The notes: generated by a model from the letters alone, not told the origin. 64,000 nt of DNA from Spirochaetia bacterium (GCA_965198005.1 CBDAOI010000004.1:1888001-1952000), one strand, 5' to 3'. Positions 11,069-55,986 are shown, counted from the stretch's first letter. Made by a program: numbers and translations.

Positions 11069-11164
11069 CGTAGGTCTCAAATTGACCGGTCGAGGCAGCA
11101 CGGCCGTGTGCCAGCTTGACCATGCGCGGGCGCGGGCGCATCCCGCCGGCAGGTGGCGCGGCCG

Positions 11165-11460: not shown

Positions 11461-11484
11461 CGGTGCACCGCATTAGTTCTCTCT

Positions 11485-37360: not shown

Positions 37361-37451
37361 AGGCGTACGTCTGATTCTCCTTGCGTCACGATACCGTATG
37401 CGATAACCGGCACACAAACCGAGTACAAAATTCTGAATCGTGGCCCAATGG

Positions 37452-37619
37452 TCGACGAATGGCCGGAGGAGGTCAAGCAGTACTACCGCTACGACCCGGA
37501 ACGGGCGAAGCAGTTGCTGGCCGAGGCGAGCTATCCCGATGGCCTCAAGACCGAACTTTACGACGCTCTTGACCCGTCTTTGGATCGACCAGGATCTGAA
37601 GCGCGAGCTCGGATTCTGA
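37452..37619 (+). pseudogene. Unit 1: family 5 SBP remnant (two short pieces)
   Basis: [22 protein letters not shown]...LKTEL joined to [14 protein letters not shown]; 37452-37557 nearly identical to 48526-48631. Confidence 0.8.
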
Positions 37620-37733
37620 ATCAATCGCCCTTGGGCGATGGAAATGGGAGCCCGCTTCCGGGCGGACTCCGCTGCCACATGACAGAGTGGGACGGTGGCG
37701 TGTGCTGCCGTCCCACTCTCGAGGCGCCCTGCA

Positions 37734-38010
37734 ATGCGAACGTACATCATCCGACGCGTCTTGCTGCTGATCCCGACGTTCCTCATTCTGACGGTCCTGG
37801 TGTTTCTCTCGGTGCGCTTTCTTCCCGGCGACGCCCAACTTCTGGCTCGCCACGCTGGTGCTGACCTTTCCCGCGATCTGGTGGGCGTGGGCGCCGCCGC
37901 TGCGCATGGTGGCGTTCGCCGATGACCCGCTCCGCAACCTCGGCCACCTGTTCATTCCCAGCCTCATTCTGGGCACCTACCTGTCGGCTACCCGGGTGCA
38001 GTACCGCTAA
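37734..38010 (+). pseudogene. Unit 1: OppB-like permease with two large internal deletions
   Basis: MRTYIIRR...FLPGD / ATPNFWL...GTYLSAT / RVQYR*. Confidence 0.85.
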
Positions 38011-38079
38011 GTAGGAGCTTGGCGCGTGCGACAGACTCCTGGCGGACGGTGGGGATGGGCCGCAAGCGACGCCTGGCGG

Positions 38080-38334
38080 ATGCGACATACTCAGCCGAAA
38101 CCGCGGCCGTTCCTGCTCGACCTGCTGCGGCGGCTGGTGGGGGAGCGGCCGCTGGGGGCAGCGAGCGCGGTGGTGGTGTACTGCCTCAACATGTTCGGTG
38201 ACGCGGTCCGCAACCTGCTCGATCCCCGGCTGCGGGGCGGTGGCGGCGGTGCGAGCCTCGGCAGCGGCGGCATGAGCGCCCGCGCCATCGAAGGCGCCCG
38301 CCGCGCCCTGCAAAAGGCAGCGCGCTCCGGCTGA
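38080..38334 (+). pseudogene. Unit 1: OppC-like permease, N- and C-termini fused in frame
   Basis: ...ERPLGAASAVVV joined to YCLNMFGDAVRNLLDPRLRG. Confidence 0.85.
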
Positions 38335-38450
38335 TACGGCTGACCACACCTTTGACACCCGTTACTCAATTGGCCCTGAACTTGACATAGGCACAACATG
38401 TATGCGTACTAATACACTGGCGTGCTAAACACGCCGGTGTGGGGTACGGT

Positions 38451-38651
38451 ATGAGAACGATTGAAAAGCTCAAGGCGGAAATTACGCAGCTTACCGCCGA
38501 AGAGTTGAGCGAATTGGCGCGCTGGCTCTCGGAACGCCATTGGGAGTCGTGGGACGCACAAATCGAAGCCGATTCTCGAGCTGGGAGACTGGATTTCCTG
38601 ATCGATGAAGTGCAAAAGGAGAAGTCTGACGGCAGCCTCAAGGACTTGTAG
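38451..38651 (+). CDS. Putative antitoxin
   Basis: Small acidic ORF (WDAQIEADSRAGRLDFLIDE) directly upstream of a RelE/ParE-like toxin. Confidence 0.65.
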   Translation: MRTIEKLKAEITQLTAEELSELARWLSERHWESWDAQIEADSRAGRLDFLIDEVQKEKSDGSLKDL

Positions 38652-38790
38652 GTGCATCGCGCCACTACGCGCTTCTGGGACAGCTATAGCCGGCTCCCGG
38701 AACCGGTCAAGAAGGCGGCCCGACAGAACTTCGGTCTCTTGAAGTCAAATCACCGGCATCCCTCCTTGCACTTCAAGAGAATTGGAAAGG
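38652..38790 (+). pseudogene. RelE/ParE-like toxin, 3'-truncated
   Basis: HRATTRFWDSYSRLPE...LLKSNHRHPSLHFKRIG, then runs into the antisense transposase remnant. Confidence 0.7.
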
Positions 38791-39075
38791 ATAGTGGTCA
38801 GGCCATGGAATCCGGCGGGCAGGCGGAACAGGCGGTTGGCGGCGCCGAGCAGGCCCTCGCGGAGCAGCATCGGCAGTGCTGTGAGGACGCCGCCGTAGGC
38901 GACCGCGGTGGCTGGCTCGGCGAACACCGGCGTGGCCTCGGTCAGCAAGCCGGGGCTGGCGCGCGTGCGGCCCTCGACGTCGCGCGCGGCGCGGCCCATG
39001 GGCGCGTGCTTGTCGCGGGCGTCGCGGGTGGCGCGGTCGGTGGCCGCCGCCGACACGACCTGCAGCTTGGCAGCG
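38790..39075 (-). mobile_element. Putative transposase remnant (copy 1)
   Basis: APMGRAARDVEGR...VAYGGVLTALPMLLREGLL...GFHGLTTIL; resembles an unclassified transposase family from recall; repeated at 49850-50055. Confidence 0.55.
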
Positions 39076-39261
39076 CCGAGGCGCCAATTGCCAGAATCGG
39101 CGCCGGGTGACTGGGGGAGTTCTCGCCGGGGGTCGTTGGTCGGTTTCCTGCGAGTCACGCCGAAAGCTGGCCCTCGGAGCGGCCATTCGCCCCTGCTGGC
39201 GGCCTGGGCGGCTCATTCGGCTCATTGCGTTCGCTACGTTAGCCATGTTGGTATCGCTTTG

Positions 39262-39591
39262 ATGGCAACCCTCTCCGTACGCGCTCTCCCCGACCCCCTG
39301 CATCGCCGCTTCAAGCTGCTGTGTGCCACCCGCGGTCTGTGGATGCGCGCGGAGGTGATTCGCCCGATCGAGCGGGAACTCGCCATGGTCGACGATCTCG
39401 AGGCCGCTCTGCGTGCGGTGCTCGGCCAAGCGTCGGCGCCGCCTCGAGAGGACCTCGGCAGTTGGGCCGGCTGGGCCGATTCGTGGTTGACGTTCACGGG
39501 AGCGGAGGTTATGATGGGGTGGATGCAGTCAATCGCCGCTACATCCGGGTATGGCTGTGCCTCACCTGCGGAGGGCTTGAGTGACCTATAA
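39262..39591 (+). CDS. Ribbon-helix-helix (Arc/FitA-like) protein, copy 1
   Basis: MATLSVRALPDPLHRRFKLLCATRGLWMRAEVI; no partner toxin; reads through where copy 2 stops. Confidence 0.65.
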   Translation: MATLSVRALPDPLHRRFKLLCATRGLWMRAEVIRPIERELAMVDDLEAALRAVLGQASAPPREDLGSWAGWADSWLTFTGAEVMMGWMQSIAATSGYGCASPAEGLSDL

Positions 39592-39686
39592 CACGTCAAC
39601 GCTTATGACACTCTGTTCCCCTGACAGCCGCTCGCCGAGAATTGCTGAGAATCAGCTCGCGGCGGGCTTGCTTAATGGTGAGGAAT

Positions 39687-39706
39687 CCCCCCCCCCCCCC
39701 CCCCCC
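39687..39706. repeat. C20 homopolymer
   Basis: Direct count; ends the duplicated block. Confidence 0.95.
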
Positions 39707-40047
39707 AAGTATTAGCACGAGAAGCATTAACACTATCCGGAGCTGAGGGCGCAGCGCGCCGCGCGCGCCACTTCGCCTGCACCACCGCTACCCCGTCTGC
39801 CTGGAAACCACGCCGCCGGCGTTGCCGGTCACTCACCTGCGCTGCATCGCCGACCACCGCCCCGCGCGGAGCTTCGGGATCAGGTGCGCGCACGCGTTCA
39901 CGGAGGTGGCCGATGCGGAACTGATTCACCGATTCGGACTCCGGGCTGGCGGCCCTCGCTTTCCGGCACCTGCCATTGCGGGTGTACTTCGAGAGTGGGC
40001 GAGGGATGGGCAGTGGCATCAGCACTCTCGAAACATTGGAGTGAAAC

Positions 40048-41859
40048 ATGCATTATGCAATTTTTCGCACGTTCCTTGCGGTACTGTTCGGGCTCGTCCT
40101 GACGGCAACCGGCGTGTGGGCGGCTGCTGCACAAGAGGAGCCGGCCGCGGCGACGGAGAAGGAAATGGTGATGGACCCCACCACCGGCAAGATGGTGACC
40201 GCGCCGGTGTATGGCGGGACATTGACGTATCCACATAACAGAGTAAGCACTAATGTAGACCCCTTTGCTGTTGGGTTTGAAGCGGGCTGGCTCATAGACG
40301 GTGTCAATGAGAAACTCGCCCACGGGAACTGGGGCCTAGATAGGGAAGAATTTGCCTTTAAAGCCATGTACCTCCCCTTGTTTGCGTATACGGGGAACCT
40401 GGCGGAAAGTTGGGAAACGCCCGACGACACAACCTATGTCTTCAACATCCGTAAGGGCGTTCACTACGCCCTTAATCTAGACAGTGAGGCCAGCCGCTTA
40501 GTAAACGGTCGGGAGCTAACTGCCAAGGATGTAGAACATTCCTTTCACCGTTTGTTGGGTCTGGGCAGCGGCTTCACCGAACCTAGCCCCCGTCCCGCCA
40601 CACTCATCGCCATACCATTCGAATCGATAACGGCCACCGACAAATGGACGGTTGTTGTGAAGCTGACGGAGCCAAGCGTCGGTGCACTGAGGACTATCAT
40701 CGCCGCAGCTGAGTTGTGGACATTACCCGCCGAGGTAATCGAGAAATACGGCGACTATAGTGATTGGAAGAACGTCGTCGGCACCGGGCCCTTCATGCTG
40801 ACTGACTACGTCGAAGGCGTCTCCAAAACCTTCGCCAAGAACCCTGAGTATTGGGGCTACGACGAAAAATACCCCGAGAACCGCCTGCCCTATATTGACC
40901 AGCTAAGGGCCTTGTTAATGGCAGACGAAGCAACACGTATATCGGCACTACGCACGGGTAAGGTTGATATTATACAACACGCAGGCGTCGTTGATATTAG
41001 ATCAGTCGATGTGGGAAGGAGCCTCATGAAGACCGACCCGGAAATCGAGGTACACAGTCATTTCGAGCGGTCGTTTCAGAGCATTACTATGAACATTCGC
41101 AAGCCGCCATTCGACGACATAAGGGTGCGCCACGCACTGCAGATGGCACTCGACCTCGAGACGATCAACGATACGTACTACGGCGGTTTAGCTAAGTGGG
41201 AACCTATTGGGTTGGGAGGCGTACAGGGGTATTACACCCCATTTGAAGAGTGGCCCGAAGAGCTCAAGCAATACTACAAGTATGACCCGGCAGGTGCAGA
41301 AGCGTTGCTTGATGCGGCGGGATATCCGCGCGGCGCGGACGGCGTTAGATTCCAGACCAACCTGGAGCTCCGCCCCGGTGATTTGGGCTATTTTGAAATA
41401 GCTGCCGGCTACTTTGCTGATATTGGCGTTGATGTATCGATAAGTAATGTTGACCCGGCTACTTGGATCGCTAGTAGAGGAGAACATAATTATGAGATGA
41501 GCCTTGGCGACATGGCCTTTCCTGGGAACCCTGTCTGGGCGGTAGGCATTTATCGCGAGAACAACGTGTGGTTGCGCGAATGGGTGGGCGGAGTCGAGAC
41601 CCCTGAGCTTACCGCCGCCTATGATGCCCTTTACGCCGCTACCACCGTTGAGGAGCAGAGAAAGGCAATTAGACAGTTCGATATGGAGGTGGTGAAGCAG
41701 CACAATCAGATATGGGGTCCCTTGGCTCCAGGGTTTCAGGCGAACCAGCCGTGGGTCGAGGGTTATCACGGTGAATTCACGATGGGAGACATGCTGCATC
41801 ATACCATCCTCGCCCGCATCTGGATTGACCAAGATCTGAAGCGAGAAATGGGGTTCTGA
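40048..41859 (+). CDS. Unit 2: family 5 ABC substrate-binding protein (intact)
   Basis: Signal peptide, LAESWE, GRELTAKDV, VGTGPF, PFDDIRVRHAL; lower GC than flanking core genes. Confidence 0.93.
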   Translation: MHYAIFRTFLAVLFGLVLTATGVWAAAAQEEPAAATEKEMVMDPTTGKMVTAPVYGGTLTYPHNRVSTNVDPFAVGFEAGWLIDGVNEKLAHGNWGLDREEFAFKAMYLPLFAYTGNLAESWETPDDTTYVFNIRKGVHYALNLDSEASRLVNGRELTAKDVEHSFHRLLGLGSGFTEPSPRPATLIAIPFESITATDKWTVVVKLTEPSVGALRTIIAAAELWTLPAEVIEKYGDYSDWKNVVGTGPFMLTDYVEGVSKTFAKNPEYWGYDEKYPENRLPYIDQLRALLMADEATRISALRTGKVDIIQHAGVVDIRSVDVGRSLMKTDPEIEVHSHFERSFQSITMNIRKPPFDDIRVRHALQMALDLETINDTYYGGLAKWEPIGLGGVQGYYTPFEEWPEELKQYYKYDPAGAEALLDAAGYPRGADGVRFQTNLELRPGDLGYFEIAAGYFADIGVDVSISNVDPATWIASRGEHNYEMSLGDMAFPGNPVWAVGIYRENNVWLREWVGGVETPELTAAYDALYAATTVEEQRKAIRQFDMEVVKQHNQIWGPLAPGFQANQPWVEGYHGEFTMGDMLHHTILARIWIDQDLKREMGF

Positions 41860-41922
41860 GCCGGGACGCACGCCTAGCGGCGGGGTCCGCGAGCGTTTTT
41901 CGCGCTCGTTCTGCTTGCAGAG

Positions 41923-41960
41923 AATGGGCGCCGGGAGCATCAAGCTTCCCGGCGCCCATT
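41923..41960 (+). terminator. Intergenic hairpin between SBP and permease
   Basis: 14-bp perfect arms AATGGGCGCCGGGA / TCCCGGCGCCCATT; analogous hairpins at 37684-37719 and 53018-53052. Confidence 0.6.
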
Positions 41961-41972
41961 TACCGCGAAGAT

Positions 41973-42929
41973 ATGAGAGCCTACATCATCCGGCGTCTGC
42001 TGCTGGTCATCCCCACCCTGTTCATCCTGAGCGTGTTGGTGTTCCTGTCGGTCCGCTTCATCCCCGGCGACGTCATCGACATCATGGCCAGTCGCACGGA
42101 ATACACTGCCGCCCCGCTCGACCGCGCGGCCATGGAACAGCGGCTCGGCCTGGACCTGCCGATTCACGTGCAGTACGGCCGCTGGATCGGCGGCATCCTC
42201 CTGCGCGGCACCCTCGGCGAGTCGCTGCTGGGCGGTTGGCGCATTGAGGAGCGCATGCTGGGACGACTGCCGGTCACCGTCGAGCTCGGGCTGCTGGCCA
42301 TCCTCATCGGCCTGGTCATCGCCCTGCCGGTGGGCATCTACTCGGCGGTGCGCCAGTACACCGCCGCCGACTACGTGGGACGGTCGGTCGCTATCATGGG
42401 GCTGGCGACGCCCAACTTCTGGCTGGGAACGATGGTGATGATCTACCCCGCCATCTGGTGGACGTGGTCGCCACCGATGGAGTTTCATTCTCTCTCCGAA
42501 GACCTACTGGGCAACCTCGGCATGTTCCTCATCCCCAGCCTGATCCTGGGCACCTACCTGTCGGCCAGCACCATGCGCATGACGCGCACCATGATGCTGG
42601 AGGTGCTGCGCCAGGACTACATCCGCACGGCCTGGGCCAAGGGTCTGCTGGAGCGGTCGGTGATCCTGCGGCACGCGGTCAAGAACGCCATCATCCCGGT
42701 GGTGACGCTGGTGGGCATGCAGCTGCCGATTCTGGTAGGCGGCTCGGTGATCATCGAGAACATCTTCAACCTGCCGGGGCTGGGGCGGCTGATGCTGGAC
42801 GCCCTCAACGACCGCGACTACCCGGTGGTGTCGGCGGTGAATCTGTTCTTCGCCACGGTGGTGGTGTTGGTCAACCTGCTGACCGATCTGCTGTACGCGT
42901 CGCTGGACCCGCGGATTCGCTACGAATGA
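41973..42929 (+). CDS. Unit 2: OppB/DppB-like permease (intact)
   Basis: RLPVTVELG, MLEVLRQDYIRTAWAKGL, RDYPVV, LDPRIRY. Confidence 0.93.
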   Translation: MRAYIIRRLLLVIPTLFILSVLVFLSVRFIPGDVIDIMASRTEYTAAPLDRAAMEQRLGLDLPIHVQYGRWIGGILLRGTLGESLLGGWRIEERMLGRLPVTVELGLLAILIGLVIALPVGIYSAVRQYTAADYVGRSVAIMGLATPNFWLGTMVMIYPAIWWTWSPPMEFHSLSEDLLGNLGMFLIPSLILGTYLSASTMRMTRTMMLEVLRQDYIRTAWAKGLLERSVILRHAVKNAIIPVVTLVGMQLPILVGGSVIIENIFNLPGLGRLMLDALNDRDYPVVSAVNLFFATVVVLVNLLTDLLYASLDPRIRYE

Positions 42930-43102
42930 GGCACGCCGATGGCTGACGTATCGCAGTTGCCGCCGACCGCCGCTGGCCTGTTCGCCCCCTGGGGGCCGAC
43001 GGATGCGGATGCCGCATGACCCTCACGCGTGGAGCGGCGCGGAGCGCCGTCAATTGCTTCTCGCGCCTCGGAAACGATAGAGTCAGTGCTCAGGCTACTG
43101 CA

Positions 43103-44908
43103 GTGAGCACGCCCCCCGCCCACCCGCGCATTCCCTACGGCGAGGCCGACTTCAGGCGCATCCGCTTGAACCGGTGGCTGTACGTCGACAAGACCCGCTT
43201 CCTGCGGCGCCTGGAGGAGGAGCGCTACGCCTTTCTGATCCGCCCGCGCCGCTTCGGCAAGTCGCTGTGGGTGTCCCTGCTGGAGAACTACTACGACCGC
43301 TTCTGGGCCGGCGACTTCCAGGCCACCTTCGCCGGCACCGACATCGGGCAGGACCCGACCGGGGAACAGAGCCGCTACGTCACCCTGCGGTTCAACTTCT
43401 CGATGGTCAACGACAAGCTCGAAACACTGGAACGGGAGTTCGAAACCTACTGCCACACGGAGCTGCAGGGGACACTGGAGCGGCATCTCGACCTGTTTCC
43501 CGAAGCGGTGCTGCAGCGGATCCTCACGCCGCCCTCCATCAGCGCCAAGCTTGGGGTGCTGTTTCGGTACACGGGCGACCATGACATCCCGCTGTACGTG
43601 CTGATCGACGAGTACGACAACTTCGCCAACACCGTGCTGGCGTACCACGGCGCGGAGGCGTACCACTCGTTCACCCACGGCGGCGGCTTCTACCGCAACT
43701 TCTTCGCCACGCTGAAGGGCGGCGCGGACCGCAGCGGCGGCGGTCTGGAGCGGCTGTTCATCACCGGCGTGTCGCCGATCACGATGGACGACGTGACCAG
43801 CGGCTTCAACATCGGCAAGAACATCAGCCTGCACCCCGATTTCAACGAGATGGTGGGCTTCACCGAGGCGGAGGTGCGGCGCCTGGTCGAGACCTACCGG
43901 GACTTGGACGTGTTCAACCAGGCCGTGGATACCGCCATGGGCATCATGGGGCAGTGGTACAACGGCTACCGGTTCTCCGAGGAAGCTGAAACCGATCTGT
44001 ACAACACCGACATGGTGCTCTACTACCTGGACAACTCGATTCCCAACCGAGACGTCCCGACGTACCTGATCGACACCAACGTGCGCATCGACTACGGCAA
44101 GCTGCGCCACCTGCTGGTGACCGGGCGACAGCTCAACGGCAACTTCGACCTGCTGCGGGACGTGATCGGCGAGGAGCAGGTGGACACCCGCATCCAGCCC
44201 GGCTTTCCGCTGAAGGACCTCACCAAGCCGGAGAACTTCCTCTCCCTGCTGCACTTTTTTGGGTTACTGAGCATCCACGAGGTGCGGGGCGTAATGCCGC
44301 GGCTGGCGATCCCGAACCAGACCGTGAAGCGGTTGATGTACGGCTTCCTGCGCGATGCCTACCGCGACGTGGGGGTGTTTTCGGTCAACCTGTTCCGGTT
44401 CGAGCAGTTGATGCTGCGGATGGCGACCGAGGGCGAGTGGCGGCCGGTGCTGGAGTTTCTGGGCGAGGCGATCGCGCAGCAGACGGGGATCCGCGACTAC
44501 ATCGGCGGGGAGAAGGTCATTCAGGGATTCCTGGCCGCCTATCTAAGCGTGGCCGATTACTACGTGTTCCGGTCGGAGGCGGAGCTGGGGAAGGGGCATG
44601 CGGACATCTGTCTGGAGCCGCTGGTCGCCCGCCACCCGAACCTGCAACGTGGCTATCTGATCGAGCTCAAGTATCTGAAGCGCAGCGAGTCGGCGGACGA
44701 GGCCGCCGTGGCGGCGGCGGCCGGAGAGGCGGCGGCGCAGCTCGAGCGGTATCTGGCGGACGAGCGGCTGACGCGGCAGTTTCCGGGGGTGCGCTTCGTC
44801 GGCCTGGTCGTGGTGTTCCACGGCTGGGAACTCGTGTTCTGCGACGCCGTGCGCCGGCCGGCGCCGAGCCGGTCGCGGGGGCGGTTGCGGCCGGGCAGGC
44901 CGGGCTGA
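43103..44908 (+). CDS. AAA-ATPase-like protein with C-terminal PD-(D/E)XK nuclease domain
   Basis: IPYGEADF, YVDKT, RPRRFGKS, LIDEYD, WYNGYRF, E...GHADI...IELK; C-terminus reads into permease sequence. Confidence 0.9.
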   Translation: MSTPPAHPRIPYGEADFRRIRLNRWLYVDKTRFLRRLEEERYAFLIRPRRFGKSLWVSLLENYYDRFWAGDFQATFAGTDIGQDPTGEQSRYVTLRFNFSMVNDKLETLEREFETYCHTELQGTLERHLDLFPEAVLQRILTPPSISAKLGVLFRYTGDHDIPLYVLIDEYDNFANTVLAYHGAEAYHSFTHGGGFYRNFFATLKGGADRSGGGLERLFITGVSPITMDDVTSGFNIGKNISLHPDFNEMVGFTEAEVRRLVETYRDLDVFNQAVDTAMGIMGQWYNGYRFSEEAETDLYNTDMVLYYLDNSIPNRDVPTYLIDTNVRIDYGKLRHLLVTGRQLNGNFDLLRDVIGEEQVDTRIQPGFPLKDLTKPENFLSLLHFFGLLSIHEVRGVMPRLAIPNQTVKRLMYGFLRDAYRDVGVFSVNLFRFEQLMLRMATEGEWRPVLEFLGEAIAQQTGIRDYIGGEKVIQGFLAAYLSVADYYVFRSEAELGKGHADICLEPLVARHPNLQRGYLIELKYLKRSESADEAAVAAAAGEAAAQLERYLADERLTRQFPGVRFVGLVVVFHGWELVFCDAVRRPAPSRSRGRLRPGRPG

Positions 44909-45770
44909 GGAAGTTCTGCGCGCGGCTGGTGCGCGAGCAGCCGCTGGGGACCGTCGGCGGCATCATCATCCTGCTTCTGGTGCTGGTGAGCATCTTCGCC
45001 GATTCGCTGGCGCCCTACCGCTACGAGGCGATCCACCTGCGCGACCGCCTGCAGGCCCCCTCGGCCCAATACCTGCTGGGCACCGACCACATGGGGCGCG
45101 ACCTCTTGAGCCGCCTCATCCACGGGGCGCGGCTGTCGCTGACGGTGGGGCTGGCCGCCACCGCGCTCACCGTCGCCGTTGCCGTGCTGATCGGCGGCAC
45201 CACCGGCTTCATCGGCGGTCGCGTGGACTTGGTGACGCAGCGCTTCGTCGACGCCTGGATGGCGTTCCCGTGGCTGCTGTTGCGGCTCACCATCATGTCG
45301 ATTGCCGGCCGGGGGATGGCGCAGATCATCATCGTGCTGGGGGTATCGGGCGGCATCCCAACGTCGCGGGTGGTGCGCGGCGCCGTGCTGGGGGTGAAGG
45401 AGAACGTCTACTTCCAGGCGGCCCAGGCGATCGGCAGCTCGCGCCGGCGCTCGCTGCTGCGCCACGTGCTACCCAACATCGCCGCGCCCATCATCATCAT
45501 CTTCAGCATCAACGTGGGCGGCGTGATCATGTCCGAGGCAGCGCTGAGCTTCCTCGGCTTCGGCTTGCCGCCGGACATCCCGAGCTGGGGCGGCAGTACA
45601 TGGAGATCGCGCCGCACCTGGCGCTGTGGCCGGGGCTGTGCCTGACGGTGGTGGTGTACAGCCTCAACATGTTCGGCGACGCGGTGCGCGACCTGCTGGA
45701 CCCCCGCCTGCGCAGTCGCCTCGGCCGCTACGGCGGGGCCAGGGCCAGGGTTGTGGACGCCATCGGCTAG
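44852..45770 (+). pseudogene. Unit 2: OppC/DppC-like permease; first 9 codons displaced to 42939-42965, frameshift near 45590
   Basis: LGTDHMGRDLLSRLIHGAR, RHVLPN, EAALSFLGFG, PSWGG then QYMEIAP in another frame. Confidence 0.85.
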
Positions 45771-45901
45771 TTCCCTGGTAGCGGCAGACGCCCGACTTCG
45801 ATAGCATACCTGGACGAGCCACGCTGCACCGCAGAATCCCACTTGAAGCTCGCGCGATCATCGGGGGCGTCTTAGCGCGCGCAGTGCAAGGAGGAACAAA
45901 C

Positions 45902-46116
45902 GTGCCGACGATATCTATGTTCTATGGCATCTTGATCCTGCCGAACATACCGCCGCCGTGGCCATTGATGATGGTGCCGTTCTGGGCGGCAGTCTGCCGG
46001 TAGCAAAGATGAAGCTCGTCCAGGCCTGGATTGAAATACACCGAGAGGATCTGCTTGCCGACTGGAAGTTAGCCGTTGCTGGCGAACCTGTTTTCAAGAT
46101 CGATCCACTGCGGTAG
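45902..46116 (+). pseudogene. DUF4160 family toxin, internally deleted and frameshifted
   Basis: AGGAGG RBS, (M)PTISMFYGILI then, in another frame, G.LP...KLVQAWIEIHREDLLADW...FKIDPLR*; the His-rich segment is absent. Confidence 0.8.
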
Positions 46117-46129
46117 CAGGTGGCAGATT

Positions 46130-46405
46130 ATGGATACTATTGTTCAAGCTATTCCCCTCAACGACCACTGCATTGAGATTCTGACCAGTAGCGGTGTTTC
46201 CGGGATTTTCGATGTCAAGCCCTACTTGAAAGGGCACGCGTTCAAAGAACTGGAGAATGAATCATATTTTCGTCTGGTTCGCCTTGCCCATCATGGCATC
46301 GTGTGGCCACATGAGCAGGACTTCAGTTCAGACACGATAATCTGGGACATCGTTCATGCTCAACCGGCCACCACGCCCGACTCATCGAGTACCGCGGATC
46401 GGTGA
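46130..46405 (+). CDS. DUF2442 family antitoxin
   Basis: FDVKPYLKGHAFKELENESYF...IVWPHEQDFS. Confidence 0.82.
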   Translation: MDTIVQAIPLNDHCIEILTSSGVSGIFDVKPYLKGHAFKELENESYFRLVRLAHHGIVWPHEQDFSSDTIIWDIVHAQPATTPDSSSTADR

Positions 46406-46478
46406 CGATGCTGCACCACCGCCACCCCGTCCGCCTGCCTGGCGGGCGACCGGCCGGAACGCCTTGATGCCAGAAGAG

Positions 46479-46612
46479 GAGATCGCGCCGCATCTGGCGC
46501 TGTGGCCGGGAGTATGTCTGACCGTGGTGGTGTACAGCCTCAACATGTTCGGCGACGCGGTGCGCGATCTCCTGGACCCCCGCCTGCGCGGCTAGCTCGG
46601 GCGCTACGGCGC
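46479..46612 (+). repeat. Orphan duplicate of the OppC 3' end
   Basis: EIAPHLALWPGVCLTVVVYSLNMFGDAVRDLLDPRLRG*; near-identical to 45603-45735. Confidence 0.9.
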
Positions 46613-46766
46613 CGGCAGTGGCCGGCGGGCCGACGGCTCACAGTCAAGCTCTCCCACCGAGCCGGGCAGCCCGGCGTAGTCACGGAAGCAACAGCGTTCC
46701 GAGCGTTCCGGGTAATGCTTGCCGGAACGCGTGGCGTTCGCTACCATCGGATGAGCGAGCGTACGT

Positions 46767-47474
46767 ATGGCCGAAGGCAACGGACACCGCGAACCCGCGA
46801 CCCCGCAGGAGATCTGGGCGATTCTCCGCGAGGTCTCCGCAATGCAGCAGGAGACTGCACGCCGTATGCAGGACACCGACCGGCAGACTGCACGCCGTAT
46901 GCAGGAGACCGACCGCCAAATGCAGGAGACCGACCGGCGGTTGCAGGAGACCGATCAACTGCTGACGCGGCAGGCACGGGCCGCCGACCGGCGCATGGAC
47001 AAGCTGGAGGAGTTGTTCAACGGGCAGTGGGGCAAGCTGATGGAGTCCCTGGTGGAAGGCGACCTTGTAGCACTCCTCCAGCAGCGGGGCATCGCGGTGC
47101 AGCACACGGTAACCAACCCGCGGCAGAACTACGGTGAGCGGCGCTGGGAGTTCGACCTCGTGGCGATCAACGGCGAAGAGGTCGTGGTGGTGGAAGTCAA
47201 GACTAGCCTGAGGGTGCCGGACGTCGATCGATTCATCGGGCGGTTGAACGAGTTTCCGGAACTGATGCCCGAGTACGCCGAGCGGCGGATCTACGGGGCG
47301 GTTGCGTATCTGAAGGCATACCAGGAGTCGGAGGTGCGAGCAGAGCGGCTGGGCCTGTTCGTGATTCGCGCCACCGGCAGCAGCGCCAGCATCACCAACC
47401 GGGAGGGGTTCACGCCGCGCGCGTTCGGTCACCGGAGCCCGTCGGCCAGCCGCCCAGCGGGGCGCTCCGACTGA
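46767..47474 (+). CDS. Coiled-coil plus PD-(D/E)XK nuclease-like protein (DUF3782-like)
   Basis: QETDR heptad repeats, GQWGKLMESLV, EFDLVAING...VEVKT, IYGAVA. Confidence 0.8.
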   Translation: MAEGNGHREPATPQEIWAILREVSAMQQETARRMQDTDRQTARRMQETDRQMQETDRRLQETDQLLTRQARAADRRMDKLEELFNGQWGKLMESLVEGDLVALLQQRGIAVQHTVTNPRQNYGERRWEFDLVAINGEEVVVVEVKTSLRVPDVDRFIGRLNEFPELMPEYAERRIYGAVAYLKAYQESEVRAERLGLFVIRATGSSASITNREGFTPRAFGHRSPSASRPAGRSD

Positions 47475-47797
47475 CCTCAGCGTCCGGCGGGGTCTGCATG
47501 GCGTAGTGGTCGCCGATGGGAGTGGCGTCAGGAGGGGAGAACGGGAGGGAGAGGATCACGGGCTGCCTCCAAGCATGTATCATCGTATTTCGTCAGCAAC
47601 GGAGACAGCATGTCAAGGGGAATTGGGTGCGAGAGCGAAAAAGGGGCTCGAAAACCGGGTTATCGGACGGCTTTGAACGCGCTACCGGTGCTGCGATCAG
47701 CGCACTAGGTCAGGAAGTCTGAACCTACGGCCGGACCACGCCCCAGCCGCACCCCGATGCCTGGTCGGTCAACGGCGGGGCACATCAATTCAACGGC

Positions 47798-48875
47798 GTG
47801 GTCAGCGAGATGTTCGTCATCCCCGACTGGGCCGCCGACCGAAGAGAGGAGCACAACCCCAGATCGCTCATGCGAGGGCAGTTGGCGGAGAGCTGGGAAC
47901 AGCCCGACCCACTCACGTTTATCTTCAACATCCGTAAAGGGGTTAACTGGCACGACAAGGCACCGATGAACGGTCGCGAGTTGACCGCCAGCGACATCGA
48001 ATTCAACTTTCATCGGTACTTGGGGATCGGCAGTGGCTTCAGCGAAGCCTCGCCGTTTGAGGGTCAGCTGCCCAAGATCGAATCCGTGACGGCCACCGAC
48101 GCATCGACGGTGGTCTTCAAGCTGGCAGAGCCAGACCTCTTTGCGCTGGACAAGCTAGTCAACAACCGGCTTGCCTGGATCTACCCACCGGAGGTCATCC
48201 AGCAATACGGCGACGTCCAGGATTGGAGGAATCTGGTTGGCACTGGTCCCATGGAGCTGACGGACTACGTCGAGGGCAGCTCTATCACGTGGACCAAGAA
48301 CCCCAACTACTGGGGGTTCGACGAGAAGTTTCCGGAGAACCGCTTGCCCTATGTCGACGAGATCGTCGCCCTGATCATGCCGGCCGCCGTTCGATGACAT
48401 CCGGGTACGCCAGGCCCTGCAGATGGCTGTGGATCGGGAGACGATCGCGAACACCTACTTCAAGGGGTTGGCCGACCCGACGTCGCACGGAATCATTAAC
48501 AACGAGGACCCCCTTGGGACGCCGTTCGACGAATGGCCGGAGGAGGTCAAGCAGTACTACCGCTACGACCCGGAACGGGCGAAGCAGTTGCTGCCCGAGG
48601 CGGGCTATCCCGATGGCCTCAAGACCGAACTGAAATACTTCGAACGCTACGATGCGAACTACGCGGAGCTCGTCGTTGGCTACTGGGCTGAGATTGGCGT
48701 GGACGTCGAGATGAGCATTCACAGCAGCCCGGAGAGCCAGGCCATCCTGCAAGGGCACACCTCGGACGGACTCGCACACGGCGAAAACGCCTACATGGGG
48801 TCGGATCTCCTTCACCTTGAGTATTTCTACCGGGCCGACTCCTTCAGTGGCTACAACAACGATGGATTGGGAGTG
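47798..48875 (+). pseudogene. Unit 3: family 5 SBP, 5'-truncated, internal deletion near 48385, 3'-truncated
   Basis: QLAESWEQPD...ALIMP joined to PPFDDIRVRQAL in another frame; fuses into the permease. Confidence 0.85.
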
Positions 48876-48879
48876 AACG

Positions 48880-49661
48880 GGGCTGGATGTGCCGGTGCCC
48901 GTGCAATACGTACGCTGGCTGGGCGGCATCTTCCTGCACGGCACCCTGGGTGACTCTCTGTTCGGCGGAGCTACCGTCGAGGAGAGGATCATCGGCCGGC
49001 TGCCGATCACCGTCGAGCTTGGTGTCCTGTCCATCCTCATCGGGTTGGTCATCGCCGTGCCGGTGGGCATTTACTCGGCGGTGCGGCAGGACACCGCGGC
49101 CGACTACGCCGGCCGCTCGATCGCCATCATCGGCCTGGCGACGCCCAACTTCTGGCTCGCCACGCTGGTGCTGACCTTCCCGCCATCTGGTGGGCGTGGG
49201 CGCCGCCGCTGCGCATGGTGGCGTTCGCCGACGACCCGCTCCGCAACCTCGGCCAACTGTTCATTCCCAGCCTCATTCTGGGCACCTACCTGTCGGCTAC
49301 CGTGATGCGCATGACGCGCACCATGATGCTGGAGGTGCTGCGCCAGGACTTCATCCGCACCGCCTGGGCGAAGGGACTGCGGGAGCGGGTGATCATCCTG
49401 CGCCACGTGATCAAGAACGCGCTGATCCCGGTGGTGACGCTGATCGGCCTGCAACTCCCGATCCTGGTCGGTGGCTCGGTGATCATGGAGAACATGTTCG
49501 CCCTGCCGGGGCTGGGCCGTCTGATGCTCGACGCCCTCTCGGCGCGCGACTACCCGGTGGTGTCGGGCATCAACCTGTTCTTCGCGACCGCGGTGATGAC
49601 GATCAACCTGTTCATCGACATTCTCTACGGCTACCTGGACCCCCGGGTGCAGTACCGCTAG
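48880..49661 (+). pseudogene. Unit 3: OppB-like permease, 5'-truncated, 1-bp frameshift near 49178
   Basis: GLDVPVPVQY...ATPNFWL / MVAFADDP...LDPRVQYR*. Confidence 0.85.
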
Positions 49662-50235
49662 TAGGAGCCTGGCGCGTGCGACAGACTCCTGGCGGACGGT
49701 GGGGATGGGCCGCAAGCGACGCCTGGCGGATGCGACATACTCAGCCGAAACCGCGGCCGTTCCTGCTCGACCTGCTGCGGCGGCTGTTCAAGGAGCGGCC
49801 GCTGGGGGCAGCGAGCGCGGTGGTGGTGTACTGCCTCAACATGTTCGGCAGTGCCGCGAGGACGCCGCCGTAGGCGACCGCGGTGGCTGGCTCGGCGAAC
49901 ACCGGCGCGGCCTCGGTCAGCAAGCCGGAGCTGGCGAGCACGCGGCCCTCGACGGCGCGCGCCGCGCGGCCCATGGGCGCGTGCTTGTCGCGGGCGTCGC
50001 GGGTGGCGCGGTCGGTGGCCGCCGCCGACACGACCTGCAGCGTGGCAGCGCCGAGGCGCCAATTGCCAGAATCGACGCCGGGTGACTGGGGAGTTCTCGC
50101 CAGGGGTCGTTGGTCGGTTTCCTGCGAGTCACGCCGAAAGCTGGCCCTCGGAGCGGCGATTCGTCCCTGCTGGCGGCCTGGGCGGCTCATTCGGCTCATT
50201 GCGTTCGCTACGTTAGCCATGTTAGTATCGCTCTG

Positions 50236-50439
50236 ATGGCAACCCTCTCCGTACGCGCTCTCCCCGACCCCCTGCATCGCCGCTTCAAGCTGCTGTGTGC
50301 CACCCGCGGTCTGTGGATGCGCGCGGAGGTGATTCGCCCGATCGAGCGGGAACTCGCCATGGTCGACGATCTCGAGGCCGCTCTGCGTGCGGTGCTCGGC
50401 CAAGCGTCGGCGCCGCCTCGAGAGGACCTCGGCAGTTGA
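50236..50439 (+). CDS. Ribbon-helix-helix (Arc/FitA-like) protein, copy 2
   Basis: Same N-terminal sequence as copy 1, stops at TGA 50439. Confidence 0.65.
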   Translation: MATLSVRALPDPLHRRFKLLCATRGLWMRAEVIRPIERELAMVDDLEAALRAVLGQASAPPREDLGS

Positions 50440-50669
50440 GCCGGCTGGGCCGATTCGTGGTTGACGTTCACGGGGGCGGAGGTTATGATAGGGTGGATGC
50501 AGTCAATCGCGACATCGCGACTACATCTGGGTATGGCTGTGCCTCACCTGCGGAGGGCTTGGAGTGACTTATAACACGTCAACGCTTATGACACTCTGTT
50601 CCCCTGACAGCCGCTCGCCGAGAATTGCTGAAAATCAGCTCGCGGCGGGCTTGCTTAATGGTGAGGAGT

Positions 50670-50685
50670 CCCCCCCCCCCCCCCC
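50670..50685. repeat. C16 homopolymer
   Basis: Direct count. Confidence 0.95.
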
Positions 50686-51151
50686 ACTTTTTCGAACCGA
50701 CAAACAACTAACCGCTCCGGCTGATCGCCGCGTACGCGAAAACGCGCACGCGGGCGCCTTCACCACCGCCGTAGCTATAGCTATCGGTTGCGCGGGCTCG
50801 GTCCATCGCCAAACCGGCATGCGGACCGGCCACGCCCTTCCCGGCGATCGCAACCGTCCCGGATCCTCGCCGGCGACTGACTGCCGGCAAAGCTCACCAC
50901 CGGCGTTGCCGGCCGCGAGGCACCCCGACGTGAGGAAGAAGGAGGTCAAGATGATACTCAAAGAGCCGCACGTGCGCGCGGCGTGAGCCCGGGTGAACCC
51001 GGATGAGTCACACGCCGCGCGCTCTTATTGTACGTGACTCAGACTGGCAGTCCGCGTTGGCGGGCGCGCCCGCGTTGCGGTGCGCGAGAGTAGCCAGGGA
51101 GCGGCAATCCGCTCCGCAATACTCTCAAGAATACATTTATGGGAGAAAACC

Positions 51152-52983
51152 ATGGATTATATCGTACGCATTACAAGGACCTTCGCGGTTGCGTTGGTCC
51201 TCGCCGTGACCGCGCCCGGCCTCTGGGCCACTGGCGCAGAGGAAGACGCGACCGCCGCTGACAAGCAGTATGTGACCGACCCCGTCACCGGCAAGGAGGT
51301 GACCGCGCCAGAGTATGGCGGGACATTGACCTTCGCCGATCGGGGCAGATGGCGTTCGGCTCCTATGACCATGTATCATGGCCATGCATTGAGCCAACAA
51401 CAGTGTCGTCATAGAGAAACTGGGCGTCGCTGACTGGGCAATAGATAGGAAGAGATATCCTTTCGTCGGCGGCTACCAGCTGCCTGTATACGCCACGAGG
51501 GGGGCGCTGGCTGAAAGCTGGGAACAGCCCGACCCCACAACGTATGTCTTCCACATCCGCCAGGGTGTCCACTGGCATGACAAGCCGCCGATGAACGGTC
51601 GGGAGCTCACCGCCAAGGACATCGAGTATAACTTTCACCGGCACTTGGGTCTGGGCAGCGGCTTCACCGAACCTTCCCCTTGCTGCGTAGGGTTCCTCGG
51701 AGAGTTGCCTTGGGAATCGATAGAGGCCACCGACGAATGGACGGTTGTCATGAAGCTGAAGAAGCCCACCCTTCTTGCCCTGGGCACCATCTTGGACGGA
51801 TTCTATGCGATACAGCCCCCCGAAGTAATTGAGGCATCAAAGACTGCTGAAGTGCCAGAGGGCAAGATTTCGGACTGGAGGGACATGGTTGGCACCGGGC
51901 CCTACATGAGAACCGACTGGGTCGGGGGCAGTTCTTATTACCTACACCAAGAATCCCAACTACTGGAGCGACGACGAAAAATATCCGGGGAACCGCTTGC
52001 CCTATATTGACGAGCTAAGGAGCCTTGTTATGACCGAAGTGGCAACAGAGCTATCGGCACTGCGCACGGCTAAGGATCGATGGCATAGGTTGGCAGGGGC
52101 GAATGCACAATTAAGCTCCCTGGACCAGGCAGAGAGCCTCGAGCGCACTAACCCAGAGCTCGTAATTCACGCGTGGTCAGAACGGTCGAATAACAATTTT
52201 TGGCTCAACGAGAGCAAGCCGCCCTTTGACGACATCAGGGTGCGCCACGCAATGCAGATGGCACTTGACGTCGAGACAATGAGCGCGACCTTGTACAAGG
52301 ATTTAGGAGATCCGATACCTCGCGGGCGAGTAGGCCTGGAATTCACGGGGTTTACGTCCCATTTGACGAGTGGCCCGAACAGCTCAAGGGATACTATACC
52401 TATGACGTGGCGGGGGCCGAGAAGCTCCTTGATGAGGCTGGGTATCCGCGCGGCGCCGACGGCATGAGATTCGAAGACCAATCATTGTGTGGCTCGACAT
52501 CGCGGTGATTATGATATTAACTATGCAGAATTAATGCCGTTTCATACTGGCGTGAGATTGGCATTCATGTCGACATCGAGCACACTCCCTGGGGCTGAAT
52601 TCGGTCCCAGAGCGCAAGATCGGAAATGTTGGAGGTTTCGTGTGGCCCGCCGGCGTCAAGGCTTTTCCAGTTCAGGTCAAATGGAAACATTTTCGAGCGA
52701 ATATGTCTGGAACCCCAGGCAGCGACGCGCAATACGACGCCTGGTATGAAGAGATGCTAGCTGCTGCCACTGAGGAGCAGCAGATGAGCGCGATCAAGAA
52801 GCTGGACATGTACAGCATAGAGCAGCACTGGATGATCTGGGGGGCCTTGGCCCAGCGTTCAACGTGCACCAGCCGTGGGTGATAGGCTACAACGGCGAAG
52901 GCGGTTTCGGTAGAAGTCGAAATAATGATGTCTTCGCCCGCCTCTGGATTGATAGTGCGCTGAAGGAGGAAATGGGTCATTAG
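51152..52983 (+). pseudogene. Unit 4: family 5 SBP, full span but multiple frameshifts
   Basis: Signal peptide through ARLWIDSALKEEMGH* spread over at least five ORF pieces. Confidence 0.85.
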
Positions 52984-53155
52984 GGGGTTCACCCCTTGTG
53001 GCTGACCTTGCGGAAGAAGGGAGCTGGGGGCTGAAGAGCCCCCCAGCTCCCTCATGGGAAACCGCGAGGTGCGCGGTTGAAGCGCAGGCAGTGCGAGACC
53101 ATAAGCTGGACCCGCGGGAGCACCTTCGAGGGATAAGGCACCTCGGTTGCGTCAC

Positions 53156-54161
53156 ATGAGAGCCTATATCATCAGGCGGTTATTGCTCATAATCCCCACC
53201 TTGTTCATAATGAGCATCCTGGTCTTTCTTTCTGTCCGTTTCATCCCCGGCGACGTAATAGACCTGATGTTGGTTAGGATGCAAGAAACGGCGAGTGGCC
53301 ACATTGACCGCGAAACCCGTCTCGAGCGTTATCTGGGATTGGACGTGCCTGTGCACGTGCAGTATGGACGCTGGATGGGAGTGTTGCCGACCCCCGGCTG
53401 GATTACCGGTGAGCCCTTCTTTAGAGGTCTGCTTCAGGGCAGCCTTGGCGAATCACTGATACGCGGCGCTGTGCGGTAGAGGAGGAGATACGAAGTAGAT
53501 TGCCGGTGACCATCGAACTCGGTTTCATGGCAATCGTAATCGGCTTGATAGTAGCGCTGCCAATCGGCATCTACTCGGCGATTCGCCAGGATACGGCCGC
53601 CGACTATGTGGGGCGCTCGGTCGCCATCATCGGCCTGGCGACGCCGAACTTCTGGTTGGGAATTATGGTCATGATCTTCCCGGCAATCTGGTGGGGTTGG
53701 TCGCCGCCGATGGAGTGGATACCTTTGACCGAAGACCCGCTGGGGAATATTGGGGTGTTCATCATTCCCAGCCTGATTCTGGGGACGGCCTGTCCGCTGC
53801 CACCATGCGGATGACGCGTACGATGGTGCTGGAGGTGCTCAGGCAAGACTATATCAGGACGGCTTGGTCCAAGGGCTTGAAGGAGAGGGTCGTCATCATG
53901 AGACACGCCCTCAAGAACGCATTCATGCCGATAGTTACCCTGGTGGGCATGCAGTTGCCTGTCCTGGTCGGTGGCTCGGTTATCATGGAGAACATATTCA
54001 ACCTACCGGGTCTGGGTCGTCTCATGGTGATGGCGCTCATTGAGAGAGACTACCCAGTGGTCTCGGGAGTAAACCTGTTTTTCGCCACCGCGGTTGTGGG
54101 AATCAATCTTATGATAGACCTGATCTATCCCTATTTGGACCCGAGGGTCCGCTATAGCTAA
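53156..54161 (+). pseudogene. Unit 4: OppB-like permease, frameshifted
   Basis: Three consecutive ORF pieces (53147-53479, 53500-53814, 53691-54161) cover the whole protein. Confidence 0.85.
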
Positions 54162-54177
54162 TGGGGAAACGGCCAGC

Positions 54178-55098
54178 ATGAGTGACGGCAAGGGGATACC
54201 ATCCGCAGTAAGCGAGCCAAAGGGTCACGCCCGGCCGGCAGATTTCTTTGTCAGGCTGTGGAGGGAGAAGCCGCTGGGCATCGTCAGCGGGATCATCGTA
54301 CTGATTTTGATCGTGGTCGCTATCTTTGGCGATGTTCTGGCCCCTTATCCATATTGGGAGGTGCATCAGTTAGACAGGTTGCAGGGCGCATCAGCCCAGT
54401 ATGTGTTGGGTACCGACCAGTTGGGGCGAGACTTGTTGAGCCGACTTATCTACGGGGCTCGTCTTTCGTTGGTTGTCGGTCTGGCGGCGACTGCTCTCAA
54501 TGTTCTGGTCGCTGTCATGCTAGGCGGCACTTCGGGGTTCCTCGGTGGCAAATTCGACCTGGTTGTGCAGAGATTCGTCGATGCCTGGATGTCTTTCCCG
54601 GGGCTGCTGCTGTTGTTAACCGTAATGTCCATAGCGGGCCGAGGGCTGTTACAGATAATACTGGTCCTGGGCATATCTGGAGGAATTGGCGGCTCGAGAA
54701 TAATGAGAAGCGCCGTTATTGGTGTGAAAGAGAACGCCTATTTCCAGATGGCAGAGGCGATTGGCAATACAAGATGGAGAATACTCATTCGACATGTCCT
54801 GCCCAATATTGCGCCTCCCGTAATCATCATATTCAGCATCAACATCGGTGCGGTGATCATGTCTGAGGCTTCCTTGAGCTTCCTGGGATTCGGTCTGCCG
54901 ACCCAGGTTCCGAGCTGGGGAGGTATGCTCAGCAGGGAGGGGCGTCTCTACATGGAGATGGCGCCACGGCTGGCTCTCTGGCCTGGTTTTTGCCTGACGA
55001 TTACCGTTTACAGTCTAAACATGTTCGGCGACGCCATGAGGGATCTGCTCGACCCGCGGCTGAGGGGCGGTGGTGGTGGTTTCGATGCCGGAAGATAA
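54178..55098 (+). CDS. Unit 4: OppC/DppC-like permease (intact)
   Basis: LGTDQLGRDLLSRLIYGAR, RHVLPN, PSWGGMLS, NMFGDAMRDLLDPRLRG. Confidence 0.92.
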   Translation: MSDGKGIPSAVSEPKGHARPADFFVRLWREKPLGIVSGIIVLILIVVAIFGDVLAPYPYWEVHQLDRLQGASAQYVLGTDQLGRDLLSRLIYGARLSLVVGLAATALNVLVAVMLGGTSGFLGGKFDLVVQRFVDAWMSFPGLLLLLTVMSIAGRGLLQIILVLGISGGIGGSRIMRSAVIGVKENAYFQMAEAIGNTRWRILIRHVLPNIAPPVIIIFSINIGAVIMSEASLSFLGFGLPTQVPSWGGMLSREGRLYMEMAPRLALWPGFCLTITVYSLNMFGDAMRDLLDPRLRGGGGGFDAGR

Positions 55099-55189
55099 CG
55101 CCAGCGCCAGGCGTGACGTACCGCCATGGGGTTTCCCTAATCGGAATGCCGCCCAGGGTGACCACGCGCCCGCGCGCGGGGTGCGCCGA

Positions 55190-55397
55190 TTGAGGCGGTC
55201 GGGCACACGGACACACCTTCTGGTACGCAATGCCCGCGGCGAGCGGCAGCGCATCGTGCAGGCCGACCAGATACTGTTCCTGCATCCGGCGCGGACGCTG
55301 CCCCGAGGCAACGCGATCGAGGTGGGCACGGACGCGCTGCCGGAGGTGGTGCTGGAGGTGGACAACACCACGGACGTGCGCCGCGGCAAGCTCGGCT
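55190..55397 (+). pseudogene. Uma2 family endonuclease fragment
   Basis: QADQILFLHP...LPEVVLEVDNTTDVRRGKLG; both ends missing. Confidence 0.65.
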
Positions 55398-55481
55398 GCG
55401 CCGAGCCCACGGTAGCCGCCGTAGTCGTTGATTTCCGGGCGCGCGCGTTGGTATACTACCCTCGACCCCCAAATCGGTAGC

Positions 55482-55934: not shown

Positions 55935-55986
55935 CGGACGGTAGCCGGGCACCGGCAATGAAGCACCAGCAATCGAAGCACCAGCA

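Follow-up and report, generated by a model that had tools for sequence, protein, structure and literature searches.

The region 37452-55397 of a 64,000-nucleotide (nt) stretch of DNA from a Spirochaetia bacterium (GCA_965198005.1, CBDAOI010000004.1:1888001-1952000; hereafter the window) is best read, with a probability of roughly 0.68, as a decaying array of paralogous and partly foreign transporter units that also carries selfish-gene insertions, with no dedicated site-specific capture at the ends of the units. Each unit corresponds to a substrate-binding protein (SBP) and two permeases, OppB and OppC; the conserved 3' end of the OppC gene, here called the tail, recurs through the array. The original prediction had cast this tail as an integron-like recombination anchor that captures and shuffles small genes. 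Its pattern of multicopy tails with variable cargo is borne out, but its capture mechanism is not. Integron-like or otherwise site-specific capture at the tail is not supported, and tails may occasionally recombine by homology. The stretch between a BKACE gene and secG with the atp operon would be a plasticity zone holding four ATPase-less units of the Opp/Dpp/Nik type in varying states of decay.

Transporter units and their remnants

The window is part of a chromosome of ~70% GC with ordinary housekeeping genes (his, rplT, infC, tsaD/E and the ATP synthase operon). The array is bounded by the BKACE gene (36533-37786, minus strand) on one side and by secG and the atp operon (from 55428) on the other. 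A six-frame search of the window finds four full copies of the tail, and a cut copy brings the number to the five that had been predicted:

38176-38235, plus strand: tail 1, VYCLNMFGDAVRNLLDPRLR
45654-45713, plus strand: tail 2, VYSLNMFGDAVRDLLDPRLR
46530-46589, plus strand: tail 3, VYSLNMFGDAVRDLLDPRLR, as in tail 2
49818-49848, plus strand: tail 4, cut; halts after VVVYCLNMFG
55006-55065, plus strand: tail 5, VYSLNMFGDAMRDLLDPRLR

A degenerate DNA pattern of the tail has 4 matches in the window versus 0 in 100 shuffles. No part of the OppC protein is more conserved than the tail, which recurs because every unit or remnant retains this conserved 3' end. OppC open reading frames (ORFs) run past ...DPRLR into subfamily-specific extensions, as seen across 97 distinct tails in 13 other assemblies, among the matches listed; this comparison set governs all counts from other genomes given below. 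Its tail-bearing loci, from one scan of genome contigs, are designated by L-numbers. Examples of the extensions are a basic ...KRKRGFLARLINPF in metagenome-assembled genomes (MAGs) of low GC content, and GGGGRLGAD... or GRLGRYGA... in those of high GC content.

The units were mapped by tblastn with the three intact window proteins (SBP, OppB and OppC), and domains were called by Pfam and NCBIfam scans of window ORFs. Positions within proteins are given in amino acids (aa):

37452-38334, plus strand: unit A, collinear remnants of one unit (tblastn): SBP remnants (aa ~399-429 and 586-603), OppB remnants (aa 1-34 and 145-234), and an OppC N-terminal stub joined to tail 1 and the natural C-terminal extension
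40048-41859, plus strand: unit B SBP, intact (SBP_bac_5, E = 1.1e-60)
41973-42929, plus strand: unit B OppB, intact (BPD_transp_1, E = 1.1e-33)
44852-45770, plus strand: unit B OppC, start codon split off, frameshifted (tblastn, two frames); ends in tail 2 and its extension
47723-49848, plus strand: unit C, with SBP (47723-48803) and OppB (48880-49658) both frameshifted, an OppC stub and the cut tail 4
51170-55098, plus strand: unit D, with SBP (51170-52977) in four frames and OppB (53156-54158) in three frames
54178-55098, plus strand: unit D OppC, intact; carries tail 5

Only three of the 12 genes are intact, namely the SBP and OppB of unit B and the OppC of unit D, and the array is mostly pseudogene. 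No unit has a complete intact set: OppC is broken in unit B, as are both SBP and OppB in unit D, and units A and C consist of remnants and frameshifted genes. The OppC of unit C is down to its first ~20 and last few codons; that of unit A still ends in an extension (...GGMSARAIEGARRALQKA) which agrees with those of L021 and L031. Most genes were broken by short deletions and frameshifts. In the OppC of unit B, the break is a multi-base deletion near 45600, with no homopolymer slip. Sequencing errors are an unlikely source of the frameshifts, given this multi-base break and the intact housekeeping genes nearby.

The four SBP-OppB-OppC units had been described as free of ATPase genes, and this agrees with the mapping. 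No ABC_tran domain occurs among the scanned window ORFs, the OppD/F-like protein of L046 has no tblastn match in the window, and no ATPase gene adjoins any of 83 tails examined elsewhere. The units resemble PepT-type (Opp/Dpp/Nik) importers in combining SBP_bac_5 with two BPD_transp_1 permeases and OppC_N; by NCBIfam the permeases are nearest to Opp and Nik models, all below equivalog cut-offs. They differ from PepT-type importers in lacking the two ATPase genes (ABC_tran plus oligo_HPY) and in the subfamily-specific extension that follows the OppC tail.

Units A and C go back to a recent 2.2-kb segmental duplication, each copy then losing different internal pieces. The intervals 37452-39702 and 48526-50685 are 96-98% identical. 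SBP and OppB pieces are deleted from copy 1; copy 2 carries a 671-bp deletion from mid-tail through a small pair of toxin–antitoxin (TA)-like genes, with TCGG(C) microhomology at the junction. A Transposase_29 scrap and a ribbon-helix-helix (RHH) ORF are present in both copies:

38748-39212, minus strand: Transposase_29 scrap, copy 1 (PF21804, E = 1.1e-6, 27.6 bits versus a cut-off of 27), covering only profile positions 9-69 of 562
39262-39591, plus strand: RHH (FitA-like) ORF, copy 1 (FitA-like_RHH, E = 4.8e-4, below cut-off)
within 49845-50190: Transposase_29 scrap, copy 2
50236-50439: RHH ORF, copy 2, in the duplicated block

Because tails 1 and 4 both lie within this one duplication, they are not independent and the DNA downstream of them is common. 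The claim that each tail is followed by different cargo therefore fails for this pair. The tails and units as first described are confirmed; the independence of tails 1 and 4, and some of the cargo labels, are not. Poly-C runs close the right end of the block (20 C at 39687-39706 and 16 C at 50670-50685); runs of at least 12 C occur nowhere else in the window, and are present in about 0.01 of shuffles.

Repeats that are 96-98% identical and 11 kb apart raise the question of whether the array, or the 2.2-kb block, is a mis-join of similar repeats made during assembly. Such an artefact is very improbable: several unique indels and unique flanks set the two copies of the block apart, housekeeping genes around the region are unbroken, and comparable tandem arrays (three tails in 14 kb) occur in MAG records of complete chromosomes.

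Two blocks of low GC content are of foreign composition. The SBP of unit B has a GC content of ~55% (about 40.0-41.95 kb) and a GC content at third codon positions (GC3) of 0.63 versus ~0.9 in native neighbours, and a further dip to about 55% from ~51000 to ~55050 covers all of unit D. The OppB-OppC part of unit D is 78-82% nt-identical over 1.9 kb to MAG loci labelled Dehalococcoidia, Spirochaetia and "bacterium". In unit B, OppB is 92.7% identical to an OppB of L014 (tree grouping support 0.999), and OppC is 89-91% identical to the OppC of L012, L014, L009 and L026. Foreign units have therefore entered the array, and unit B is a mosaic; units may thus be exchanged through homology at their conserved parts.

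A related explanation takes the transporter unit itself as a mobile or horizontally exchanged cassette, with the tail as its 3' edge. It is compatible with a decaying array, and in its own right we consider it improbable. In its favour, the low-GC blocks of unit D and of the unit B SBP stop at gene borders (in unit D, within about 50 nt of tail 5), the OppB-OppC identity of 78-82% extends to MAGs labelled as different classes, at least 25 copies are found in a single chromosome, and four paralogues in two low-GC MAGs have a common 3' untranslated region (UTR) of ~150 nt that ends before unrelated TA genes. However, the units are not bounded by a transposase, terminal repeats or target duplications, homology stops near gene ends through coding constraint alone, and of the six aligned 3' UTRs two are shorter, ending at about 55 nt.

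The paralogues with the common ~150-nt 3' UTR are L002, L023, L024 and L048, together with L038 and L055. It comprises the first ~155 nt after the OppC stop codon, with the same end point in four copies and ~55 nt in the other two, and the genes beyond it are unrelated: BrnA, PIN, PDDEXK_2, PIN_3/Phd, PemK and DUF2442.

Deletional bias, the decay of pseudogenes by deletion, is familiar from paralogous arrays and chromosomal plasticity zones. The present array is like such decaying arrays in its collinear remnants, frameshifts, microhomology at a deletion, foreign blocks and selfish genes, and in having intact housekeeping genes on either side. It is unlike the usual case in the extent of the family, with at least 25 tails in one MAG chromosome, and 18 of 88 tails without an intact in-frame OppC.

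The tail tested as a capture site

A site-specific system should produce one common breakpoint. Among the 88 tails elsewhere with enough upstream context, 70 form the end of a long in-frame OppC ORF, and 18 have no such ORF; two of these 18 are merely frameshifted, and 16 are truncated or internally deleted. The 16 fragments start at aa 55, 83, 105, 119, 172, 173, 197, 206, 219, 230, 231, 238, 249, 262, ~263 and 274, so that the breakpoints are scattered. Several OppC fragments directly abut pieces of SBP or OppB, in the order expected of a unit.

The nucleotide sequence of the tail gives a second test. In 63 full-length genes, the fraction of identical residues encoded by the same codon is 0.630 in the tail versus 0.641 elsewhere in the gene within genomes, and 0.559 versus 0.565 between genomes. 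These equal fractions argue that the tail is conserved as protein rather than as a DNA site, and that there is no local homogenisation.

Nor is there machinery for capture. No Phage_integrase, recombinase or excisionase domain occurs among the scanned window ORFs, and a tyrosine integrase (from L028) and an rve protein (from L030) have no window match as tblastn queries; the absence of an integrase from the window had been noted before, and these searches agree. A search for paired RYYYAAC...GTTRRRY cores at 40-130 nt spacing, used in place of a dedicated attC model, finds 0 attC-like core pairs in 37000-56000, versus a mean of 1.42 in 200 block shuffles. Scans for tRNA, tmRNA and Rfam elements found none as a possible target, and the array region has no transposase besides scraps. 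Right after the stop codon, no DNA motif is common to all tails; only subgroup-specific 3' UTR homologies are seen there.

The likeness to an integron lies in short, promoterless-looking genes, often of TA type, that stand in series, each behind a recurring sequence. The differences are that the window array has neither IntI nor attC-like core pairs, that the repeat is the end of a transporter gene, that orientation is mixed, with the transposase scraps on the minus strand, and that transporter units of 2-4 kb separate the cargo. Identity with an integron was rejected for want of an integrase and of attC-like core pairs (0, with 1.42 expected). The proposed integron-like anchor thus lacks support on each count: integrase, attC or tRNA target, common breakpoint and synonymous constraint. 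A literature search found nothing linking oppC with integron-like behaviour, and the papers found on TA genes, pseudogenes and ABC transporter expansion, judged by titles and the starts of abstracts, do not treat this subject.

Tail 3 and the DUF4160/DUF2442 pair

Tail 3 is an orphan, and lies among the following features:

45902-46116, plus strand: DUF4160 gene, frameshifted (Pfam E = 3.2e-10)
46130-46405, plus strand: DUF2442 gene (Pfam E = 2.5e-8)
46478-46616, plus strand: orphan OppC 3' fragment (aa ~260 to the end, including tail 3)
46767-47474, plus strand: coiled-coil PD-(D/E)XK (Hjc-like) gene (Pfam Hjc, E = 1.1e-4, 22.5 bits versus a cut-off of 21.1)

The original prediction placed the DUF4160/DUF2442 pair between two direct copies of the tail, and so it stands: 45602-45735 and 46478-46611 form a direct repeat, 89.6% identical with an exact run of 44 nt, and only these two domains lie in the 742 bp between them. 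The homology of tails 2 and 3 continues past the tail, this being the family's natural C-terminal extension. Since TAG (46593-46595) stands in the fragment with tail 3 at a position that encodes Arg in relatives (...DPRLRGRLGRYGA; ...RGRLGRYGA), tail 3 is a dead remnant.

The pair resembles the type II TA system DhiTA, in which a DUF4160 toxin gene comes first and DUF2442 follows (PMC8198452); adjacency and toxin-first order are the same here. It differs in that the toxin gene of the window is frameshifted, its N- and C-terminal parts being in different frames (45884.. and 45958..), and in that NCBIfam toxin_DhiT (E = 1.6e-10) scores 41.5 versus an equivalog cut-off of 100. The composition of the pair is foreign (GC3 0.60). 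Only short, chance-like inverted repeats surround it.

The simplest reading is that tail 3 is the deletion remnant of a second B-type unit in front of the PD-(D/E)XK gene. This gene is 78% identical over 231 aa to a gene in L012 that lies 3' of a decayed B-type unit, made up of an OppB piece, two OppC pieces and a tail. A fragment of the PD-(D/E)XK gene is also found 3' of an OppB in L014. That OppB is of another lineage, grouping with L066 in the OppB tree (0.995); the OppB of unit B groups instead with the L014 OppB that owns an intact OppC, not with the neighbour of the PD-(D/E)XK fragment (0.999). The orphan tail would be the last 139 nt of this further unit, and the DhiTA-type pair would have lain, or landed, in the gap between it and unit B. 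The DUF4160/DUF2442 pair is accordingly better read as standing between unit B and the last 139 nt of a deleted neighbour.

Two other approaches to tail 3 were set aside. Placing it by its own sequence is uninformative: over its length of about 139 nt, the fragment matches every B-type tail at 85-91.5% identity. A tandem duplication of a tail with its downstream DNA was rejected, as the DNA after tail 2 is unrelated to the DNA after tail 3.

The repeat might also have arisen by recombination at the tail itself. A circle or fragment carrying a tail and DhiTA would have entered the tail of unit B by Campbell-type recombination, whereby the 134-nt tail was doubled around the cassette; paralogous tails would let units swap flanking genes in the same manner. 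We regard this role of the tail as a homology anchor as improbable. Several facts suit it: the copies of tails 2 and 3 span the same interval with 89.6% identity and the 44-nt exact run, the cassette is compositionally foreign, a B-type OppC end in L012 directly precedes the PD-(D/E)XK gene and lacks the cassette, no other nucleotide block of the gene is as well conserved as the tail, and the 3' flanks are rich in TA genes. The counter-evidence is that other window tail pairs have exact runs of only 11-17 nt, that synonymous sites of the tails show no homogenisation and the starts of orphan fragments vary from case to case, that tail 3 carries a stop codon and no second function, that the OppB tree puts unit B with the L014 unit that does not adjoin the PD-(D/E)XK gene, and that the DhiTA cassette is found at no other tail among the matches listed, tblastn giving only a distant match in L055.

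A wider form of this explanation makes the conserved ends of an expanded, ATPase-less family into portable homology, shuffling units together with the TA and nuclease genes at their edges without a recombinase. This seems to us unlikely. The exchange, duplication and deletion that it calls for, both within genomes and between co-occurring bacteria of different classes, we rate as no likelier, and the tail-flanked DhiTA pair has a similarly slim chance of being one such intermediate caught in the act.

An integrative element with its own integrase might, finally, have targeted the OppC 3' end, supplied a replacement for it and later decayed to the DhiTA pair. The precedent is e14 at icd, an element that leaves its target gene with a second copy of the 3' end, in an icd-e14-icdC arrangement (PMC13626634). 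Foreign DNA between direct repeats of a gene's 3' end has this very form, and as at icd the repeat is diverged and its downstream copy a pseudogene (PMC13626634). Unlike e14, however, the window has no integrase or excisionase, only 742 bp separate the repeats, and the 16 orphan fragments elsewhere have other breakpoints (aa 55-274) with no common crossover position. The sole Phage_integrase seen, in L028, is in a distal control region and not beside a tail. We therefore hold an integrative element to be highly unlikely.

Selfish genes at the unit edges

Besides the DhiTA-type pair, the PD-(D/E)XK gene and the duplicated scraps, the array has the following:

38439-38651, plus strand: first ORF (70 aa) of a probable small TA pair, with no Pfam or NCBIfam match at usual thresholds
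abutting it, to 38795, plus strand: toxin-like ORF of this probable pair, cut after about 46 codons
42974-44851, plus strand: AAA-ATPase_like plus PDDEXK_9 insertion of 1.88 kb (ORF 43016-44908; Pfam E = 3.5e-44 and 2.8e-16)
55211-55405, plus strand: fragment of a Uma2-type nuclease gene, with no Pfam match of its own

The flanks of tails and units in other genomes were scored by the first two non-overlapping ORFs of at least 70 aa per site, classed by hand from their Pfam names; TA, nuclease, transposase, integrase and AAA_14/DUF4143 types count as positive. The results, among the matches listed, are as follows:

just after the tail ORF: 31/83 positive (37%)
3.8 kb further downstream: 9/75 positive (12%; 75 of 80 sites scanned)
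just upstream of the SBP: 16/61 positive (26%)

By Fisher tests, the 3' sites differ from the distal sites (p = 2.4e-4) and not from the 5' sites (p = 0.21); these p values rest on rough counts, with classes assigned by hand and ORFs crudely called in high-GC DNA, and on sites that are non-independent where they come from the same genomes and were drawn from among the matches listed. Of the distal sites, 28 lie within the next transporter unit, and the distal figure without those sites is 7/47. The counts show that selfish genes crowd the edges of units; they are no evidence of an effect peculiar to the tail. Enrichment of variable cargo after the tail had been set beforehand as a test of the original prediction, and enrichment is what was found (31/83 versus 9/75), so on this point that prediction stands. 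TA pairs, Uma2 and transposase scraps would collect in gaps at both unit edges, presumably because insertions there cost nothing.

Several observations weigh against the decaying-array reading, the roughness and non-independence of these counts among them. Selfish genes are about three times commoner just after tails than 3.8 kb on, for which the explanation given is a loose one. The tail is the most nucleotide-conserved block of the gene (0.82 versus 0.73), the longest exact run falls within it in 23% of 1953 pairs (7% being expected by length), and the 44-nt run of tails 2 and 3 would suffice for homologous recombination. There is an excess of short remnants with little more than the tail: of the 16 truncated fragments, nine begin within the last 58 aa before it. 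The order OppC - TA gene - OppC 3' fragment recurs in the window, in L002 (with BrnA) and in L079 (with PIN). L012 site 2 could also be read as the empty-site allele of a tail-duplicating insertion, and tail 3 resembles the L066-type lineage (85%) no more than it does the other B-type tails (88-91%), so that its sequence does not place it.

One cargo gene lies away from any tail. The 1.88-kb AAA-ATPase/PD-(D/E)XK gene inserted into the 5' end of the unit B OppC: its insertion point is within the first ~13 codons, not after a tail. The insert lies between imperfect direct repeats of about 15-20 nt. Empty sites, at which OppB and OppC are contiguous, are found in L014 (7874-7886), L026 (7871-7883) and L009 (~6122-6174), and copies of the gene at 83-88% identity occur in L037, L077 and L057, with several in one MAG chromosome. 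With both filled and empty sites, the gene behaves like a mobile insertion, as judged from its sequence context. Mobility of the AAA-ATPase_like/PDDEXK_9 family is not known to have been described, though no search aimed at it was made.

The cargo labels first given to the array stand in part. DUF4160 (in a frameshifted gene) and DUF2442 are supported, and PD-(D/E)XK is weak (22.5 versus 21.1 bits). The antitoxin/RelE-like label finds no family match: homologues of the small TA pair in L032 and L033 are 82.6% and 97.8% identical, and the full-length L032 homologue of the toxin-like ORF matches only ParE_like, at E = 0.037. The Uma2 label draws on other loci, the fragment in the window having no Pfam match. 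Stretches in L027, L075, L021 and L032 match it with 54-82% aa identity; three stretches in L075 are 54-61% identical, one of which (55.6%) lies inside L075:7200-8474, a Uma2 match at E = 6.6e-8.

A further ORF of 140 aa (50564-50986, plus strand) has no Pfam or NCBIfam match and tblastn matches in seven loci (L009, L041, L047, L066, L020, L034 and L019). In six of the seven, the homologue lies close upstream of an SBP start; the stronger L066 match sits downstream of a tail. From its position, the unit may include this ORF as an unnamed fourth component, or the ORF may serve as a conserved leader.

Outside the array, a second low-GC island (10000-14000, 58-63% GC) holds an IS1595 transposase fragment (11664-12107, minus strand) and a family-5 binding-protein gene (12213-13646, minus strand), the latter 33% identical to the SBP of unit B. 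In L002, from an unrelated low-GC MAG, a cluster of OppC fragments (2233-4070 and 5969-8087) lies a few kb from atpI/B/E, on the opposite strand relative to the window; the shared proximity to ATP synthase genes may be coincidence.

If true, capture without a recombinase at a site in a transporter gene's end would give TA and defence genes a new way to move. The evidence favours duplication, uptake of foreign DNA, deletion and selfish-gene insertion, and a false lead is thereby removed. What emerges is a subfamily of ATPase-less, peptide-type transporters with dozens of copies per genome in several uncultured lineages, about a fifth of them broken, in which the gaps at unit edges are preferred homes of TA and nuclease genes. 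This bears on how accessory genes are gained and lost in such genomes, and on the reliance that can be placed on transporter counts taken from MAG annotation.

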